Origin: Ostreococcus lucimarinus
Lineage: Eukaryota
DNA length: 64,000 bases
Direction: 5' to 3' (one strand)
NCBI GenBank assembly: GCA_000092065.1
Contig: CP000581.1
Shown here: piece by piece, positions 3,996 to 49,089 of the stretch
How positions within the stretch are numbered: the stretch's first letter is position 1
Layout: each line of letters opens with the position of its first letter
Made by a program: the position numbers and the translations under genes
The notes under the pieces: generated by a model
What the model was told of the DNA's origin: nothing
Databases searched by the model: none
Seen by the model: the letters and a program-made list of their open reading frames with translations, nothing else

Positions 3996-5516
3996 CTAGT
4001 CCAAAGCGAGCACGGTGATATCCGAGCAATCGCGGCCGTCATCCGCGAGGACGCACTCGAATCGAGCCAACATCGTCTTCATTTTACTCCTCGTGATGCT
4101 CGCGGGCGTGAGTTTCTTGAGTCTTTCCTGGTCGCCGAGACTCGCCCCGCGTTCTTCTTTCATCTTCTCCCAGTCCTCGGCGGAACGAATTCCAACACAC
4201 AACTCTTCGGAGTTATACTTCGCGAGGCATTCTAAACGAGCTTCAATCATTATCATACCAGGCGACTTGCCTAAGCCACAGTCGCAGTGCAGCGTCGTCC
4301 AGGATCGCATGTGACGCAAGACTTCTGGGCTCCCGAAATCCCAAGTCTCGCCCGGGAGCTTGTTGACATCGGCACACCCTGAACCGTAGTCATCGTATGA
4401 CAGTGCGAACGCATGCGCTTCGCCTTTCATACTGAGTTCGTTGATGGCCTGCGCTACACGTTCTTGTTCCATCGGGTGAGGACCGTAATTCAAAGCGAGC
4501 CGCTGGATTTTCAGCGTCGTCGGCGACGCGCGCCAGAAGACTTGGCCCGAGTTGAAATTCCAAGCGTCTTGATGGTGTTGTTTAGCGTTCTCATTCTTTT
4601 GCATATATGGGTAGCGTCCACGGTACAGCGCGTTATATCCGATCCAGTCTTGTTGATAAAACACATTTGTGCGCGGATGTTCGCGGACTAAACGCCCCAA
4701 GTCTGGGACTTTAAAAAGGAGAACATCCGTGTCGAAGATGAAAAAGTCCACATTCGCGGCGAGCAATCCGAGAGTGACTTTTTGTTTGAACCAAGTCAGC
4801 TGTTTGTATTTGAGGTCGTCGGCGTGCCCGCCCGAGTGCACCAAGCCGTCGAACGCGTGCCCGTCGGCGTATTGCAAGCAGTGAAACAGCTTCTCGCTTT
4901 CGCACTTCCTCGTCGCGTCGGCGTCCAGCGTGATCAAAATGTACCGCTCAATGAAGCACGTTTGATTCACAACGCGCTGCGTCGATAATTTGGCGGTCTC
5001 ATAGTTTTCCGAATCCGCGATGGAGACAAAGAGCGTGTTCGCCGGCGCGCACGACGACGGCGTCTTCGCGCGCTGCTGCGCAAACGGGTGCAACTGTTTA
5101 TACCACGAGCAATCCCTCGGCGTGATCTTGTGTTCGGTCTCGTGTGCCCTGTCATCGTCTCCGTTCATCGCGTTCGGGTAGTCGCTCGTCATCGCCGGCA
5201 GGCACGACAAGTTGCCGCCGACGCGCTCGAAGTCGTAAAAGTCGCCGCCGAGCGTGGCGGCGTCCCCTTCCAAATCCATCGCGTCCGCCTTCGCCGAGCG
5301 CGCGCGCGCGCCGAGCGGTTGGACGGACGCATCGCGCGCGGAGTTGACGCTCGAGACGATCGCCGCCCCGACGAGGAGCGCGCACGCCGAGCCGACCGCG
5401 AGCGTCGTCTTCAGGCTCAGGCTCGAGCGTCGACTTTGGTGTTGCGCGCGATCCGTCGCGGTCAACGACGCCGGCGCGTCGACCAAGGGCGCGGACTCCT
5501 CGAGCGAGCCCGACAT
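3996..5516 (-). CDS. Type-II membrane glycosyltransferase, Nucleotid_trans (PF03407/GT77-like) family, copy 1
   Basis: 506 aa, real ATG at 5516. N-terminal hydrophobic anchor (LAVGSACALLVGAAIVSSV). DxD-type motif ANVDFFIFDTDVLLFKVPDLG and downstream NFNSGQVFWRASP, typical of nucleotide-diphospho-sugar transferases. Confidence 0.7.
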   Translation of the reverse strand: MSGSLEESAPLVDAPASLTATDRAQHQSRRSSLSLKTTLAVGSACALLVGAAIVSSVNSARDASVQPLGARARSAKADAMDLEGDAATLGGDFYDFERVGGNLSCLPAMTSDYPNAMNGDDDRAHETEHKITPRDCSWYKQLHPFAQQRAKTPSSCAPANTLFVSIADSENYETAKLSTQRVVNQTCFIERYILITLDADATRKCESEKLFHCLQYADGHAFDGLVHSGGHADDLKYKQLTWFKQKVTLGLLAANVDFFIFDTDVLLFKVPDLGRLVREHPRTNVFYQQDWIGYNALYRGRYPYMQKNENAKQHHQDAWNFNSGQVFWRASPTTLKIQRLALNYGPHPMEQERVAQAINELSMKGEAHAFALSYDDYGSGCADVNKLPGETWDFGSPEVLRHMRSWTTLHCDCGLGKSPGMIMIEARLECLAKYNSEELCVGIRSAEDWEKMKEERGASLGDQERLKKLTPASITRSKMKTMLARFECVLADDGRDCSDITVLALD

Positions 5517-5860: not shown

Positions 5861-7381
5861 CTAGTCCAAAGCGAGCACGGTGATATCCGAGCAATCGCGG
5901 CCGTCATCCGCGAGGACGCACTCGAATCGAGCTAACATCGTCTTCATTTTACTCCTCGTGATGCTTGCAGGCGTGAGTTTCTTGAGTCTTTCCTGGTCGC
6001 CGAGACTCGCCCCGCGTTCTTCTTTCATCTTCTCCCAGTCCTCGGCGGAACGAATTCCAACACACAACTCTTCGGAGTTATACTTCGCGAGGCATTCTAA
6101 ACGAGCTTCAATCATTATCATACCAGGCGACTTGCCTAAGCCACAGTCGCAGTGCAGCGTCGTCCAGGATCGCATGTGACGCAAGACTTCTGGGCTCCCG
6201 AAATCCCAAGTCTCGCCCGGGAGCTTGTTGACATCGGCACACCCTGAACCGTAGTCATCGTATGACAGTGCGAACGCATGCGCTTCGCCTTTCATACTGA
6301 GTTCGTTGATGGCCTGCGCTACACGTTCTTGTTCCATCGGGTGAGGACCGTAATTCAAAGCGAGCCGCTGGATTTTCAGCGTCGTCGGCGACGCGCGCCA
6401 GAAGACTTGGCCCGAGTTGAAATTCCAAGCGTCTTGATGGTGTTGTTTAGCGTACTCATTCTTTTGCATATATGGGTAGCGTCCACGGTACAGCGCGTTA
6501 TATCCCACCTGGCCTTGTTGATAAAACACATTTGTGTGCGGATGTTTGCGGAGTAAAAGCCCCAAGTCTGGGACTTTAAAAAGGAGAACATCCGTGTCGA
6601 AGATGAAAAAGTCCACATTCGCGGCGAGCAAACCGAGAGTGACTTTTTGTTTGAACCAAGTCAGCTGTTTGTATTTGAGGTCGTCGGCGTGCCCGCCCGA
6701 GTGCACCAAGCCGTCGAACGCGTGCCCGTCGGCGTATTGCAAGCAGTGAAACAGCTTCTCGCTTTCGCACTTCCTCGTCGCGTCGGCGTCCAGCGTGATC
6801 AAAATGTACCGCTCAATGAAGCACTTTTGATTCACAACGCGCTGCGTCGATAATTTGGCGATGTCATAGTTTTCCGAATCCGCGATGGAGACAAAGAGCG
6901 TGTTCGCCGGCGCGCACGACGACGGCGTCTTCGCGCGCTGCTGCGCAAACGGGTGCAACTGTTTATACCACGAGCAATCCCTCGGCGTGATCTTGTGTTC
7001 GGTCTCGTGTGCCCTGTCATCGTCTCCGTTCATCGCGTTCGGGTAGTCGCTCGTCATCGCCGGCAGGCACGACAAGTTGCCGCCGACGCGCTCGAAGTCG
7101 TAAAAGTCGCCGCCGAGCGTGGCGGCGTCCCCTTCCAAATCCATCGCGTCCGCCTTCGCCGAGCGCGCGCGCGCGCCGAGCGGTTGGACGGACGCATCGC
7201 GCGCGGAGTTGACGCTCGAGACGATCGCCGCCCCGACGAGGAGCGCGCACGCCGAGCCGACCGCGAGCGTCGTCTTCAGGCTCAGGCTCGAGCGTCGACT
7301 TTGGTGTTGCGCGCGATCCGTCGCGGTCAACGACGCCGGCGCGTCGACCAAGGGCGCGGACTCCTCGAGCGAGCCTGACAT
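5861..7381 (-). CDS. Type-II membrane glycosyltransferase, Nucleotid_trans family, copy 2 (tandem paralogue)
   Basis: 506 aa, real ATG at 7381. Roughly 98% identical to copy 1 (differences include ETAKLSTQRVVNQT->DIAKLSTQRVVNQK, GRLVREHPRT->GLLLRKHPHT, DWIGYN->GQVGYN, NENAKQ->NEYAKQ). Confidence 0.7.
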   Translation of the reverse strand: MSGSLEESAPLVDAPASLTATDRAQHQSRRSSLSLKTTLAVGSACALLVGAAIVSSVNSARDASVQPLGARARSAKADAMDLEGDAATLGGDFYDFERVGGNLSCLPAMTSDYPNAMNGDDDRAHETEHKITPRDCSWYKQLHPFAQQRAKTPSSCAPANTLFVSIADSENYDIAKLSTQRVVNQKCFIERYILITLDADATRKCESEKLFHCLQYADGHAFDGLVHSGGHADDLKYKQLTWFKQKVTLGLLAANVDFFIFDTDVLLFKVPDLGLLLRKHPHTNVFYQQGQVGYNALYRGRYPYMQKNEYAKQHHQDAWNFNSGQVFWRASPTTLKIQRLALNYGPHPMEQERVAQAINELSMKGEAHAFALSYDDYGSGCADVNKLPGETWDFGSPEVLRHMRSWTTLHCDCGLGKSPGMIMIEARLECLAKYNSEELCVGIRSAEDWEKMKEERGASLGDQERLKKLTPASITRSKMKTMLARFECVLADDGRDCSDITVLALD

Positions 7382-14579: not shown

Positions 14580-14599
14580 GTCGCGGTGCGTTCGCGCGT

Positions 14600-14990
14600 T
14601 CGCCGTATCTCTCGCTCGCTCGCGTCGCGTCGCGTCGCGTCGCGTCGCGTCGCGTCCACGTGTGCGGCGCGCGGACGGCCGCACCGCACACCGCACGCCG
14701 CACGCCGTCGTCGTCGTCGTCGCCGATCGGTCGCCCGCGCGTCGGTCGGTCGGTCGGTCGGTCGGTTTCGTTTCCGTCGCGCGCGCGTCGTCGTCGCGGC
14801 CGCCGGACCGCCGGACCGCCGGACCGCCGGACCGCCGGTCCGCCGGTCGCGCGCGCGGTCGCGTCGGCATCTTGCGCGCCACCGCGCGCGCGTCGACGCG
14901 CGGCGCCTCGGCGAGGTCCCGCGCGCGACGCGGACGCGCGCGCGTCGTCGACGCGCGTCCGACGCGCGCCGTCGCGCCGTCGCGCCGTCG
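14600..14990. repeat. Cluster of GC-rich microsatellites in the PMM/enolase bidirectional promoter
   Basis: (gcgtc)x7 at about 14621-14656, (gtcg)x6 at about 14741-14766, (cgccggac)x4+(cgccggtc)x2 at about 14801-14848, and (gtcgcgcc)n near 14960-14990. Confidence 0.8.
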
Positions 14991-15154
14991 CGCGCGTCGT
15001 CGCCGTCGCCGTCGCGCGCGGCGTCGCCGTCGGCGACCGACCGCGCGTGGTCCGACCGACCGCGCGGATAAGCCGGAAAAACCCACCGACCGAGGGTCGC
15101 GACTCGATCGAGACCCCCTCGGGGTGACGACGTATGCGCGCCAGTGCGAACGCA

Positions 15155-15164
15155 TATATACCTC
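15155..15164 (+). promoter_or_regulatory. TATA-like element upstream of enolase
   Basis: catatatacc sits in otherwise about 75% GC sequence, roughly 140 bp upstream of the enolase ATG at 15299. It argues against the upstream in-frame ATG at 15134 being the start. Confidence 0.3.
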
Positions 15165-15298
15165 CCGCGCGCGCCCCACACGGGCGAAACGCGCGCGCAG
15201 TACGCCCCCGCGCGCCGCGGTCGCGCGCGGCGCGTGAGGGCTTGCGCCGGCGCGCCGTCGCGGCGCCCGACGCCGCACACGACGACGCGACGCGCGCG

Positions 15299-17137
15299 AT
15301 GAGCGTTCAGGAGTACATCGAGAAGCACGATCTCACGAAGAAGATCGAGGAGGCGCTCAACGCCGCGGTCAAGGCCAAGGCGGATGAGCCGCTCGCGTTC
15401 GTGGTGCGCGCGACGCGACGCGATTGACGCGCGAACGCGATGGATGCGCGCGACCGCGGCGCGACGTCGAGGGCGAAGGGCGACGCGCGCGAAGGCGCGC
15501 GAAGGCGCGCGAGCGATGCGTTCGATGGCGTGGAAAACGTGCGGGCGAATGGGACGGGACGCGGGATCGGTGCGAGCGCGCGCGCGCGGGGGGGGGGTCG
15601 TTACGATCGCGGGAGGCGATCGGGTGTCTGGATAAAAGCGCGCGGCGCGCGCGGGCGATCGCGCTCGCGGAGGGGTGGGCGGGGCGAACGCCGTCGCCGT
15701 TCGGGATCGGGCGTGGAGGATTCGGGCGCGAAGATGCGTCGCGCGGCGACGCGGCGCGACGAAAAGACGATTGACTGACGATTCGACGAATGCTTACGAC
15801 GCGCGCAGAGCGAGTACATGAAAAAGCGCACGACGCCCGCCATCACGAAGGTCGTCGGTCGCCAAATTTTTGACTCTCGCGGTAACCCGACGGTTGAAGC
15901 CGATGTGTACACGCACAAGGGTATGTTCCGCGCCATGGTGCCGAGTGGTGCGTCCACGGGTATCTACGAAGCCGTGGAACTTCGCGACGGCGGCAAGGAA
16001 TACATGGGCAAGGGCGTCATGCAAGCCGTGAAGAACTTGAACGAAATCATCGCCCCGGCGCTCATCGGCAAGGACCCGCGCGACCAAAAGGCGATCGATG
16101 ATTTCATGTGCAAAGATCTCGACGGTACGGACAACAAGGGCAAGCTCGGCGCCAACGCCGTGCTCGCGGTTTCCATGGCCGTCGCCAAGGCTGGCGCCGC
16201 CGAGAAGGACGTGCCGCTCTACCAACACATCGCCGACCTCGCCGGTAACGGCAAGTTGGTGCTCCCGGTGCCGGCGTTCAACGTCATCAACGGTGGTTCC
16301 CACGCTGGTAACAAGCTCGCCATGCAAGAGTTCATGATCTTGCCGGTCGGGGCTTCCTCCTTCAAGGAGGCGATGCAAATGGGCTCCGAAGTCTACCACA
16401 ACTTGAAGTCGGTCATCAAGAAGAAGTACGGCCAAGATGCGTGCAACGTCGGTGACGAAGGTGGCTTCGCCCCGAACATTCAAGACAACAAGGAAGGTCT
16501 CGACCTCCTCGTTGAAGCGATCGAAAAGGCTGGCTACACCGGTAAGATGAAGATCGGTATGGACGTCGCCGCGTCTGAATTCTTGACCGAAGACAAGTGC
16601 TACGATCTCGACTTCAAGACCGAAGGCAACGACGGTTCCATGAAGAAGACTGGTGCCGAGATGATCGACTTGTACCAAGAGTTCATCAGCGAGTACCCGA
16701 TGATCTCCATCGAGGATCCGTTCGACCAAGACGACGCTGAAAACACCGCCGCGCTCACGGCGAAGAACAACTGCCAAATCGTCGGCGACGACTTGTTGGT
16801 GACCAACCCGAAGCGCGTGCAAGCCGCCATCGACGGCAAGTGGTGCAACGCCCTCTTGCTCAAGGTGAACCAAATCGGCACCATCTCCGAGTCCATCGAG
16901 GCCGTCGGCATGTCCAAGAAGGCTGGCTGGGGTGTCATGGCTTCCCACCGCTCCGGCGAAACCGAAGATTCCTTCATCGCCGATCTCGCCGTGGGCTTGT
17001 CCACCGGTCAAATCAAGACGGGCGCCCCGTGCCGCTCCGAGCGTTTGGCCAAGTACAACCAGCTCTTGCGCATCGAAGAAGAACTCGGTGACAAGGCTGT
17101 CTACGCCGGCGCGTCGTACAAGCACATTGCTTGGTAA
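15299..17137 (+). CDS. ENO: Enolase with a 35-aa N-terminal Dpy-30/RIIa-like extension (2 exons)
   Basis: Exon 2 (15809-17137) is a canonical enolase (..[41 protein letters not shown]..). Exon 1 (15299-15403, [35 protein letters not shown]) ends at a gtgcgc donor. Intron 15404-15808 has actgac 29 nt before acceptor gcgcgcag. The junction is in phase and gives ..LAFV|[15 protein letters not shown]... Confidence 0.85.
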
Positions 17138-17436
17138 ACGCGCGTTAGGACACGCTCGGCACAATTACGTTTGTGCGCGCGTCGAGCGCCCCAGTCGCTC
17201 GTCGCGCCCCGCGATCGCGCTTTGCTTTGCCTTTGCTTGCATTAGAGCCACACCTTTCATATAATCCAACACAATTAGAAAAGCAACTCTACGCGTCGCC
17301 GTTCCCGAAAACGCGGGGGCAGGGTGCCGTTTTCTGTCCCGATGGAGGCCCCCAAGATGACGTTTCGCCCAATCGCGTCGACGCGACCGCACAGCGCGAC
17401 GCGACCGCGCAGTGCGAAGGCGCGCCGGCGGTGGAA

Positions 17437-47262: not shown

Positions 47263-49089
47263 TCATCCCTGGTCCATATCGCCGAGCGCGGCGCCAGACT
47301 CGCTCGCGTAAGCGTTCGATTTGTGCTTTGGCTGAAATGCGAATCCTTCAGGCGGCGGGCCGAGGAGCATTGTGGAGATCTTCACCCAATCGCTACTCGC
47401 CTCGCTCGCCATGAGTGTCTCCAAATCGTCCCGTCCAACAAACGCCGGTGGGCGCTGTGTCATCGCGGCAGCGCCGTAACTGTGATCCAACAACCCGATG
47501 GGGGTGTAGCGATACGTAAACGACATCCACTCGAGCAAATATTTGCGCGTCGACTCCACGCCTCGCGTGTCGCTTCCCCAGTGTTCGAGCCCGAAAGAGG
47601 CGAATGATTTCAAAATATCGAATCGCTCACGCGACGAAATGTCCCAGTCGCGACGCTCTTTGATTTCGGTGAACAGCCACGGCTTGATGAGCGCGCCGCG
47701 AGCGAGCATGCACGTGTCCACGGAGTGTTCCTCCAGATGGGTGTAGTAATCCTTTTGCATGTATACATCGCCGTTACCTATCAAAGGTACCGAGCTCGAC
47801 TCTTTTGTTAATTTGGTGTACTCCCAATCCGCCACGCTCCGGTATCGCTGCGCGCGCGTGCGTCCGTGAAGCGTCATCGCCGCCGCGCCCCATTCGGCGA
47901 CTTTCGGCGCAAACGTGTGCGCGACTCGACTTTTATCGGTGTACGCCATGCGCGTTTTGAACGTTAGCGAACACTTGCCAAGCGCCGCGCTGGCAGCACG
48001 AATGACTGTTTCCATCTTCTTGGGTTTCTCGAGCATCATCGACCCGTATCCTTTCTGGCACACGGAGTCGATCGGGCACCCCATGTTGATGTCTATAAAG
48101 TCGACGTCTATCGTGTCTTCGAGTAATTGGCAGCACCTGGTGACTGAGTCTGGGTAACCACCACATATCTGCACCCCAAAAATGTCTTCGCTCTTATGAC
48201 GACGAAGAAGCGCCCACTCACTCGGGAGTCCTTGCAGTAAACTCGTACACAACGCCATCTCACCGCACGTGATGTCGGCGCCAAGCGTCTTGCAAACGCG
48301 ACGAAACGGTAAATTTCCGACCGTCGTCAAAGGAGCTAGGTACAGCTTGTCTTTGAAGTCGATTGTTCTCTTCTCTTCGACGCGCGCTTTCGTAAACGCA
48401 CCCGTATCCGTACGGTTTTCTTCGTCGACTTTTGCGCGTTTCGCCGCGCTCTCCTCGCCCGCTTTCGTCTGCTCATCCTTTTTCGTCTCCATCGCCCTCA
48501 ACACTTCCTTCACGATCGTATCCGCCCTAGAAAAATCATACTTCTTCTTGCGTAACCGCACCATCACGTCCTTGTCCACGAAATTCATCTCCTTCTCCAC
48601 CGTCTTCGGCGGCTCGAGCGTCGTCGTCGACTCGGCAACCGTCGCGCCGTCCCGACCCTCCCCCGTCGCGTGCGTTCCGTAATATCGACAACGCACCCCG
48701 TACGGGCACCCGCCCTCTTTATTCACGAACGTGCACGTCCCCGGCAAATCGGGAGGTTTCGTCTTCAAAAACGCGTCGACGTCGTGCGAATATTTACACG
48801 CGTCGCCAAAGGCGCACTTTCCCTCGCGCGTCAACTGATTGCACAGCCCGCGCTCGCGCGGCTTATCCGCGCGCGACTTTTCGGCGAACTTGGCGCGTTT
48901 GTTGAACGCGCCGAACGTGCCGCCGCCCGAGATCGGCGCGGCGTCGCCGGCGTCGGCGTGGGTCGCCGCATCGAGCGGCGGCGGTGGTCTGGGCTCGACG
49001 AGAAACTCGCGCTTGACGACGACGGTACCGCTCGCGAAGAGCTCCGCGGACGTGGGCGGAGTCCACGGCGCGCCGACGTCGCTCGACAT
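47263..49089 (-). CDS. DUS3: tRNA-dihydrouridine synthase 3-like (two CCCH zinc fingers + DUS TIM-barrel)
   Basis: Real ATG at 49089. ..LCNQLTREGKCAFGDACKYSHD.. and ..GTCTFVNKEGGCPYGVRCRYYGTH.. (CCCH x2). DUS domain ..LAPLTTVGNLPFRRVCKTLGADITCGEMA..IDINMGCP... Confidence 0.85.
   Translation of the reverse strand: MSSDVGAPWTPPTSAELFASGTVVVKREFLVEPRPPPPLDAATHADAGDAAPISGGGTFGAFNKRAKFAEKSRADKPRERGLCNQLTREGKCAFGDACKYSHDVDAFLKTKPPDLPGTCTFVNKEGGCPYGVRCRYYGTHATGEGRDGATVAESTTTLEPPKTVEKEMNFVDKDVMVRLRKKKYDFSRADTIVKEVLRAMETKKDEQTKAGEESAAKRAKVDEENRTDTGAFTKARVEEKRTIDFKDKLYLAPLTTVGNLPFRRVCKTLGADITCGEMALCTSLLQGLPSEWALLRRHKSEDIFGVQICGGYPDSVTRCCQLLEDTIDVDFIDINMGCPIDSVCQKGYGSMMLEKPKKMETVIRAASAALGKCSLTFKTRMAYTDKSRVAHTFAPKVAEWGAAAMTLHGRTRAQRYRSVADWEYTKLTKESSSVPLIGNGDVYMQKDYYTHLEEHSVDTCMLARGALIKPWLFTEIKERRDWDISSRERFDILKSFASFGLEHWGSDTRGVESTRKYLLEWMSFTYRYTPIGLLDHSYGAAAMTQRPPAFVGRDDLETLMASEASSDWVKISTMLLGPPPEGFAFQPKHKSNAYASESGAALGDMDQG

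Follow-up and report, generated by a model that had tools for sequence, protein, structure and literature searches.

A docking/dimerization-type N-terminal domain on the single annotated enolase of the non-flagellated alga Ostreococcus lucimarinus

The enolase gene and its annotation

We analyzed a stretch of 64,000 nucleotides from Ostreococcus lucimarinus (assembly GCA_000092065.1, contig CP000581.1; hereafter the window), which carries a two-exon gene for the glycolytic enzyme enolase (Table 1). Read directly from the sequence, its start codon is the ATG at 15299-15301 (+). If left unspliced, the frame of exon 1 reaches a stop at 15425. The frame of exon 2 opens upstream only as far as 15779, and its earliest ATG is at 15818. 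The CTGAC motif of the intron lies 30 nt 5' of the acceptor. Exon 2 spans 15809-17137, with TGG (17132-17134) as the final codon before the TAA stop (17135-17137), and the spliced product has 477 amino acids.

Both enolase domains exceed their Pfam gathering scores in the spliced protein: Enolase_N (PF03952) at 189 bits (E=3.5e-56, cut-off 35) and the TIM barrel Enolase_C (PF00113) at 493 bits (E=2.6e-148, cut-off 21.5). More than 30 distinct solved enolase sequences align to it with high scores. The spliced product has exactly the sequence of XP_001415437.1 / ABO93729.1 from O. lucimarinus CCE9901 (UniRef100_A4RQS6); all 477 residues are the same, hence also exon 1, intron, and exon 2. The exon/intron model is already present in the reference annotation. 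That record is named merely "predicted protein" or phosphopyruvate hydratase, and the docking/dimerization (D/D) domain described below is unlabelled there.

Transcript contigs show the splice

Five environmental transcript contigs of 1.6-1.8 kb (L021-L025; JGI samples 3300016723 and 3300016740, Logan runs SRR28369046, ERR9850589, and ERR9850559) all hold the exact 477-amino-acid open reading frame (ORF), uninterrupted and without intron. In blastn against the window they match up to 15403 and resume at 15808/15809 with 99.3-100% identity, and the ATG at 15299 is inside all five. The intron is retained in genomic metagenome contigs of this species (L005-L018), so the five contigs are spliced mRNA. 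At their 5' ends the genomic match reaches at least ~15267-15286. These data show that transcription of the gene starts upstream of 15299 and that the 405-nt intron is removed.

The remaining 5' sequence of these contigs is non-genomic, and the transcription start is therefore not defined by them. Two begin with ~100 nt of unrelated AT-rich sequence (L021:1-101 and L022:1-100); the junction, at CCGCGCG, lies 6 nt upstream of the ATG, and these foreign ends are probably assembly chimeras. Two others (L024:1-32 and L025:1-19) begin with the Nextera adapter AGATGTGTATAAGAGACAG.

A preliminary description of this DNA, made from the sequence alone, had proposed an in-phase splice that links a 35-codon exon to the enolase body over a 405-nt intron, with the junction 15403/15809. 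The five transcript contigs contain exactly this junction, and the structure is further supported by the match to XP_001415437.1, by an environmental relative, and by about 90 homologues (see below).

The extension has the features of a D/D domain

Other solved enolases start at query residue 46-48 (one chain at 41), and the Chlamydomonas enzyme alone carries the full extension. The extension was therefore taken as residues 1-45. The view that it is separately encoded holds only in part: exon 1 is real, but the module comprises residues 1-45 and the intron cuts within its last helix, between PLAFV and SEYMKK. The intron interrupts helix II and does not delimit the D/D module.

When 35 extensions were scanned individually against Pfam, 18 matched Dpy-30 (best 5.5e-8), 11 Tex55, 9 DUF5586, and 6 RIIa (best 1.7e-5). 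A profile of the extension was then compared with PDB sequences. It matched residues 1-47 of Chlamydomonas enolase (7n6g/7sqc, 5.8e-24), the DPY-30 domain of AK7 (3e-5), the D/D domain of PKA RI-alpha (1.8e-4 over 37 residues), NDK5 (7e-3), and DPY30 (0.016-0.03). Another solved enolase, 7ugh, was also matched (3.8e-5) and has a related N-terminal extension.

AlphaFold2 with the family alignment gave a model with a predicted local distance difference test (pLDDT) score of 93.8. Its predicted layout is a flanking helix at residues 3-9 followed by helix I (12-25) and helix II (31-42), with Pro31 at the end of the loop between the two, forming a helix-loop-helix of ~40 residues that superposes on solved D/D protomers. 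The flanking N-terminal helix described for the R1D2 type (PMC8339350) corresponds to predicted helix 3-9 (VQEYIEK), which carries Tyr6-Ile7. The loop between helices I and II is A28-D-E-P31 (KADEP), compared with PxxP in the R1D2 motif. Pro31, the second loop proline that discriminates R1D2 from R2D2, is present and is invariant in the enolase family. Elsewhere the loop reads KPDEP in core chlorophytes and RPSEP in the environmental relative L001.

Against the assignment, neither the whole window protein nor its N-terminus (first 47-49 residues) gave a Pfam D/D match even at E<=10, so recognition of the domain rests on the family profile. The structural comparison supports it: in Foldseek the top PDB match of the model was the RI-alpha D/D domain bound to smAKAP (5hvz_B; probability 1.00, template-modelling score 0.73, root-mean-square deviation 1.0 A, 26% identity), and the further matches were mostly DPY30 and chains of axoneme or central-apparatus entries, with most of the top 30 being D/D-type; however, all E-values were >=0.13 and not significant, because the domain is so short. 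A further point against is that the first proline of the R1D2 PxxP motif is Ala28 in the window protein.

At the level of family profiles and predicted fold, the extension is shown to be a D/D domain that belongs to the RIIa/DPY-30 clan and comes nearest to RI-alpha (R1D2). The Dpy-30/RIIa likeness that had been proposed from the letters is thus upheld by the matches to RI-alpha, AK7, NDK5, and DPY30 and by the AlphaFold model, and can be stated more precisely as likeness to the RI type. Published work agrees. Enolase has been listed among the non-metazoan PKA-R-like D/D proteins, in the R1D2 clade, with loss of the D/D domain in metazoans, and the alignment displays the D/D domain of Micromonas commoda enolase (PMC8339350, JBC 2021). 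An N-terminal extension of ~45 amino acids was found in all complete green-algal enolases examined, including those of O. lucimarinus, O. tauri, both Micromonas species, and Chlamydomonas, and in Arabidopsis ENOc; its function was left open (PMC4192683, Metabolites 2014). Gene model and domain assignment are both already published or annotated. Our literature search on the function of Arabidopsis ENO3/ENOc found nothing about the extension beyond PMC4192683.

The D/D domain of PKA RI-alpha (2ezw, 5hvz) shares Y-[VI]-x-K-H and P-[ML]-A-F-[LV]-x-E-Y with the extension. It is attached to a kinase regulatory subunit, whereas that of enolase is attached to an enzyme. The inter-chain cysteines of RI-alpha are not in the window enolase, and AKAP binding is a feature of RI-alpha, to which the enolase is likened by its predicted fold. 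AK7, NDK5/RSP23, and DPY30 resemble enolase in that a D/D module docks enzymes of nucleotide or energy metabolism in axonemal complexes. Unlike the N-terminal D/D domain of enolase, those of AK7 and NDK5 are C-terminal, and AK7, NDK5, and DPY30 belong to the DPY-30 branch whereas the enolase domain falls in the PKA-R branch.

Exon 1, its intron, and the extension are conserved

The environmental relative L001 is syntenic with the window, with genes for phosphomannomutase, enolase, a RING finger protein, and UCH in the same order, at 86% amino-acid identity. Its enolase gene is built in the same way: exon 1 has 35 codons, the donor is GTGCGT, the intron measures 396 nt and lies at the same codon, and CTGAC and CAG recur. 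In exon 1, 27 of the 35 amino acids are identical to those of the window, and the codon differences comprise 12 synonymous and 8 non-synonymous changes. The intron sequences are 0.59 identical, compared with 0.53 for shuffled sequence. Among 12 distinct environmental haplotypes, exon 1 varies by one single-nucleotide polymorphism (SNP), which is synonymous (15385 T/C). Within the intron the haplotypes differ by 8 SNP columns and 2 inserted columns. The intron of the window also contains short tandem repeats, namely three copies of a 19-nt unit (15405-15464) and 2.8 of GCGCGCGAAG (15485-15512), and a G9 run at ~15590-15598.

In green algae and land plants, some 90 homologues open with the same motif, MSVQEYI.KH.L.KKVEE..NA.VK.KP.EP..F. 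Genera with the extension include Micromonas, Chlamydomonas, Chloropicon, Pyramimonas, Nephroselmis, Coccomyxa, Selaginella, Marchantia, Sphagnum, and Ginkgo. A homologue search with the 47-residue alignment returned short fragments only. Among the matches listed from an exhaustive search of representatives (150 of 631, E<=0.001), mostly ORF fragments of exon 1, we found no occurrence of the extension outside enolase.

In the flagellated genus Micromonas, M. commoda has an intron of 262 nt after codon 35 (L019:1501-1885). Chlamydomonas incerta has one at the same place (L020:1501-1775), plus an extra intron inside codon 5. Ostreococcus, Micromonas, and Chlamydomonas all have the codon-35 intron in phase 0, with a GTGCG donor. 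Many genomic ORF fragments in an exhaustive protein search lose the match at profile position 35-36, which suggests that the codon-35 intron is widespread in the green lineage. Its shared position indicates that it is old. An "introner"-type repeated intron is not supported, given the position common to Micromonas and Chlamydomonas and the unconserved intron sequence.

The enolase of M. commoda (R1D2, PMC8339350) is an orthologue from an 81% identical cluster, with the intron in the same position. Both proteins have the N-terminal flanking helix with Tyr-Ile and the second loop proline, while O. lucimarinus has Ala in place of the first PxxP proline. The extension of angiosperm cytosolic enolase 3 (AtENOc/ENO3 type), MSVQEYLDKHMLSRKIEDAVNAAVRAK..DPVLFISNHM.K, is 51-57% identical to window residues 1-47 (PMC4192683). 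The angiosperm protein is one of several paralogues, whereas the Ostreococcus enolase is single.

We compared selection on the two parts of the protein. The ratio of non-synonymous to synonymous change (pN/pS) between the window and L001 was 0.19 for codons 1-45, where synonymous sites are saturated, and 0.205 for the rest of the protein; a point against reading these values as selection without a flagellum is that L001 may not be non-flagellated, so that the comparison need not lie wholly within non-flagellated lineages. The codon comparison indicates that the extension is under purifying selection as strong as that on the catalytic body, in a lineage without an axoneme. Based on these similar ratios and on the single synonymous SNP in exon 1, the D/D domain appears to be kept by selection without an axoneme.

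The extension is shared with a flagellar enolase but is not confined to flagellates

Residues 1-477 of the window protein align with residues 1-477 of 7n6g_6G, the enolase chain in a cryo-EM entry for the Chlamydomonas central apparatus, at 788 bits (E=1.8e-236). The two proteins are collinear and share the same N-terminal extension (7n6g, 7sqc; PMC9113940), and by this measure the window protein is the orthologue of the Chlamydomonas central-apparatus subunit. The previously suggested homology to the N-terminal extension of Chlamydomonas enolase is therefore confirmed over the full length. The loop is KPEEP in Chlamydomonas and KADEP in O. lucimarinus. Two solved chains, 1oep and 2ptw, which we take to be trypanosome enolases, begin at query residue 46 and have no D/D domain; if that identification is correct, enolase may in some lineages associate with the central apparatus without the domain. 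A preprint on the central apparatus of T. brucei describes an enolase dimer in C1b (PMC12154619). Chlamydomonas enolase is part of the C1b projection, which is organized by CPC1 (PMC6548120, PMC9113940).

Chlamydomonas has a 9+2 axoneme with the CPC1 scaffold, whereas Ostreococcus is non-flagellated (PMC6851583) and so has no 9+2 axoneme with a central pair and CPC1 scaffold, CPC1 itself not having been searched for. In a survey of non-motile chlorophytes that covered O. tauri and O. lucimarinus, dynein-arm, radial-spoke, central-pair, and intraflagellar-transport proteins were mostly absent (PMC6652019). There is one enolase gene in each Ostreococcus (PMC4192683), and the D/D tag therefore sits on the housekeeping glycolytic enzyme.

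Four algae that we take to be coccoid or non-motile, Chloropicon, Coccomyxa, Chromochloris, and Botryococcus, have retained the extension as well. It is likewise kept in the "cytosolic enolase 3" of the angiosperms Acorus, Morella, Punica, Trifolium, and Helianthus, a group that to our knowledge has no flagella or flagellated cells. A flagellar role cannot apply to the O. lucimarinus enolase, and a D/D-tagged enolase is unusable as a marker of flagella. The preliminary description had suggested a flagellar or central-pair docking tag in a flagellated prasinophyte. Neither part stands: the host is non-flagellated (PMC6851583), this is its sole enolase gene (PMC4192683), and the extension occurs in angiosperms.

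Possible functions of the domain in Ostreococcus

We consider it very likely that O. lucimarinus has a single annotated enolase with an inherited D/D domain that is under selection and that most likely serves a non-axonemal role. An axonemal partner cannot be the current one because Ostreococcus has no flagellum, and a non-axonemal role is the most likely because the domain is selected in a lineage without one.

The 477-amino-acid protein consists of a 45-residue N-terminal module in front of a canonical enolase. If this module acts like other D/D domains, the N-termini of both subunits in the enolase homodimer would pair into an antiparallel X-type four-helix bundle, whose groove would hold an amphipathic helix of a scaffold protein. 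In Chlamydomonas and other flagellates, the bundle would contribute to placing enolase in C1b of the central apparatus. In Ostreococcus the domain stems from flagellated ancestors and is still under purifying selection, and most likely it either docks onto another partner with an amphipathic helix or reinforces the dimer. We tentatively propose, as a possibility that we hold with some doubt, that the domain may dock the glycolytic enolase onto a non-axonemal amphipathic-helix scaffold in Ostreococcus and in the angiosperm cytosolic enolase 3 alike, and may be kept by selection for that reason. If true, glycolysis in the green lineage would have a conserved anchoring system of AKAP-like type that has not been described before and does not depend on cilia. 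Ostreococcus tauri is amenable to homologous recombination and would be a clean system in which to look for what the conserved D/D domain binds in organisms without cilia.

Alternatively, the domain could solely reinforce or regulate the enolase homodimer, binding no scaffold helix, and we regard this as unlikely. An effect on dimerization or regulation has been proposed (PMC4192683), no partner is known in non-flagellated green organisms, and the first loop proline has been lost in the window protein. However, enolase dimerizes without the extension in nearly all other organisms, in keeping with the solved enolases that start at 46-48; characterized D/D domains bind amphipathic helices (PMC8339350); and the Chlamydomonas orthologue sits in a scaffolded complex (PMC9113940).

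Another explanation is that exon 1 is vestigial and that a transcript initiated in the intron is translated from Met39 (ATG 15818) into a 439-amino-acid enolase without the D/D domain. This is very improbable. There is an in-frame ATG 9 nt into exon 2, ORF callers give the 439-amino-acid form in 1153 blocks of the sequence collection, and alternative initiation in algal enolases has been speculated (PMC4192683). An additional minor transcript from inside the intron would also be compatible with the five contigs, a point against our main reading. However, exon 1 is joined to exon 2 in all five, and it has kept its frame, splice sites, and amino-acid sequence, most changes being synonymous. Most homologues, among them those of Micromonas and Chlamydomonas, have Leu at position 39, and Met39 is thus not a conserved start. 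The shorter form owes its abundance to gene callers that ignore introns when run on genomic contigs.

The idea that Ostreococcus has a hidden flagellated stage, for example gametes, in which the domain would still be a C1b docking tag, has a very slight chance of being correct. The collinearity with Chlamydomonas C1b enolase and the purifying selection on the domain would fit such a stage, and coccoid and flagellated morphs are known within one prasinophyte species, Pseudoscourfieldia (PMC13213038). Nevertheless, Ostreococcus is described as non-flagellated (PMC6851583) and the extension persists in angiosperms, which lack flagellated cells.

A transit peptide for an organelle, instead of a protein-interaction domain, can practically be dismissed: at ~45 amino acids the extension is similar in length to the transit peptide of Arabidopsis plastid ENO1 (PMC4192683), but we rejected this reading because the extension is acidic, lysine-rich, and highly conserved from Ostreococcus to angiosperms, has a high-confidence predicted fold of three helices, and matches D/D profiles, and because several programs predicted no transit peptide in it and Chlamydomonas plastids have no enolase activity (PMC4192683).

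Truncated gene calls and other features of the window

The exact 439-amino-acid product from Met39 (window 15818-17137) is the form indexed in those blocks of the sequence collection, and the full 477-amino-acid form appears only in NCBI and in the five transcript contigs. Exon 1 is called as a separate ORF of 61-97 amino acids reading into the intron (window 15134-15427; L005-L018), and exon-1 fragments of 42 and 61 amino acids are labelled "enolase" in JGI. Intron-blind metagenome calling thus systematically truncates an abundant marine enolase to 439 amino acids and turns exon 1 into a small "hypothetical" ORF. Since the reference model is already correct, the two-exon structure has little consequence for genome annotation.

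Table 1 Features of the enolase gene and of the adjacent intergenic region.
Feature	Position	Strand	Remarks
Microsatellite (TCGCG)x9.4	14612-14656		
Microsatellite (GTCG)x6.5	14741-14766		
Microsatellite (CCGCCGGA)x5.9	14800-14846		
Repeat, 24-nt unit x3.8	14937-15032		
TATA-like element CATATATACC	15153..15162	+	~135 nt upstream of ATG; read from sequence
Exon 1, coding part	15299..15403	+	35 codons: predicted N-terminal flanking helix, helix I, loop, and start of helix II of the D/D domain
Intron	15404..15808	+	Phase 0, 405 nt; donor GTGCGC, CTGAC 15775-15779, acceptor CAG 15806-15808
Codons 36-45, remainder of D/D helix II and linker	15809..15838	+	Helix II predicted to span residues 31-42; first matched residue of other solved enolases 46-48 (one chain 41)
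Internal in-frame ATG (Met39)	15818..15820	+	Start used by ORF-based gene callers for truncated 439-amino-acid product
Enolase catalytic body	15839..17137	+	Enolase_N residues 47-176, Enolase_C residues 185-473, stop TAA
3' untranslated region	17138..17387	+	Transcript contig ends ~17247 to ~17387 (blastn of L021-L025 against window)

The TATA-like element CATATATACC may act as a core promoter; it lies in the intergenic region between the enolase gene and the divergent phosphomannomutase gene on the minus strand. The part of this region at 14588-15032 is dense in GC-rich microsatellites. A scan for sigma-70 promoters and terminators found no promoter-like site, the model being bacterial and not relevant to a eukaryote, and an Rfam scan of the whole window at gathering thresholds gave no match.

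An open frame of 456 amino acids runs antisense to the whole enolase coding region (15794-17164, -). Such ORFs are common across the GC-rich window, and this one is most likely a compositional artefact. A further exact O. lucimarinus protein in the window is XP_001415794.1 at 47263-49089 (-). Two adjacent genes of 506 amino acids each, at 3996-5516 (-) and 5861-7381 (-), belong to the nucleotide-diphospho-sugar transferase family PF03407. The copy at 5861-7381 is exactly XP_001415783.1, and the 98% protein identity of the pair suggests a recent tandem duplication.

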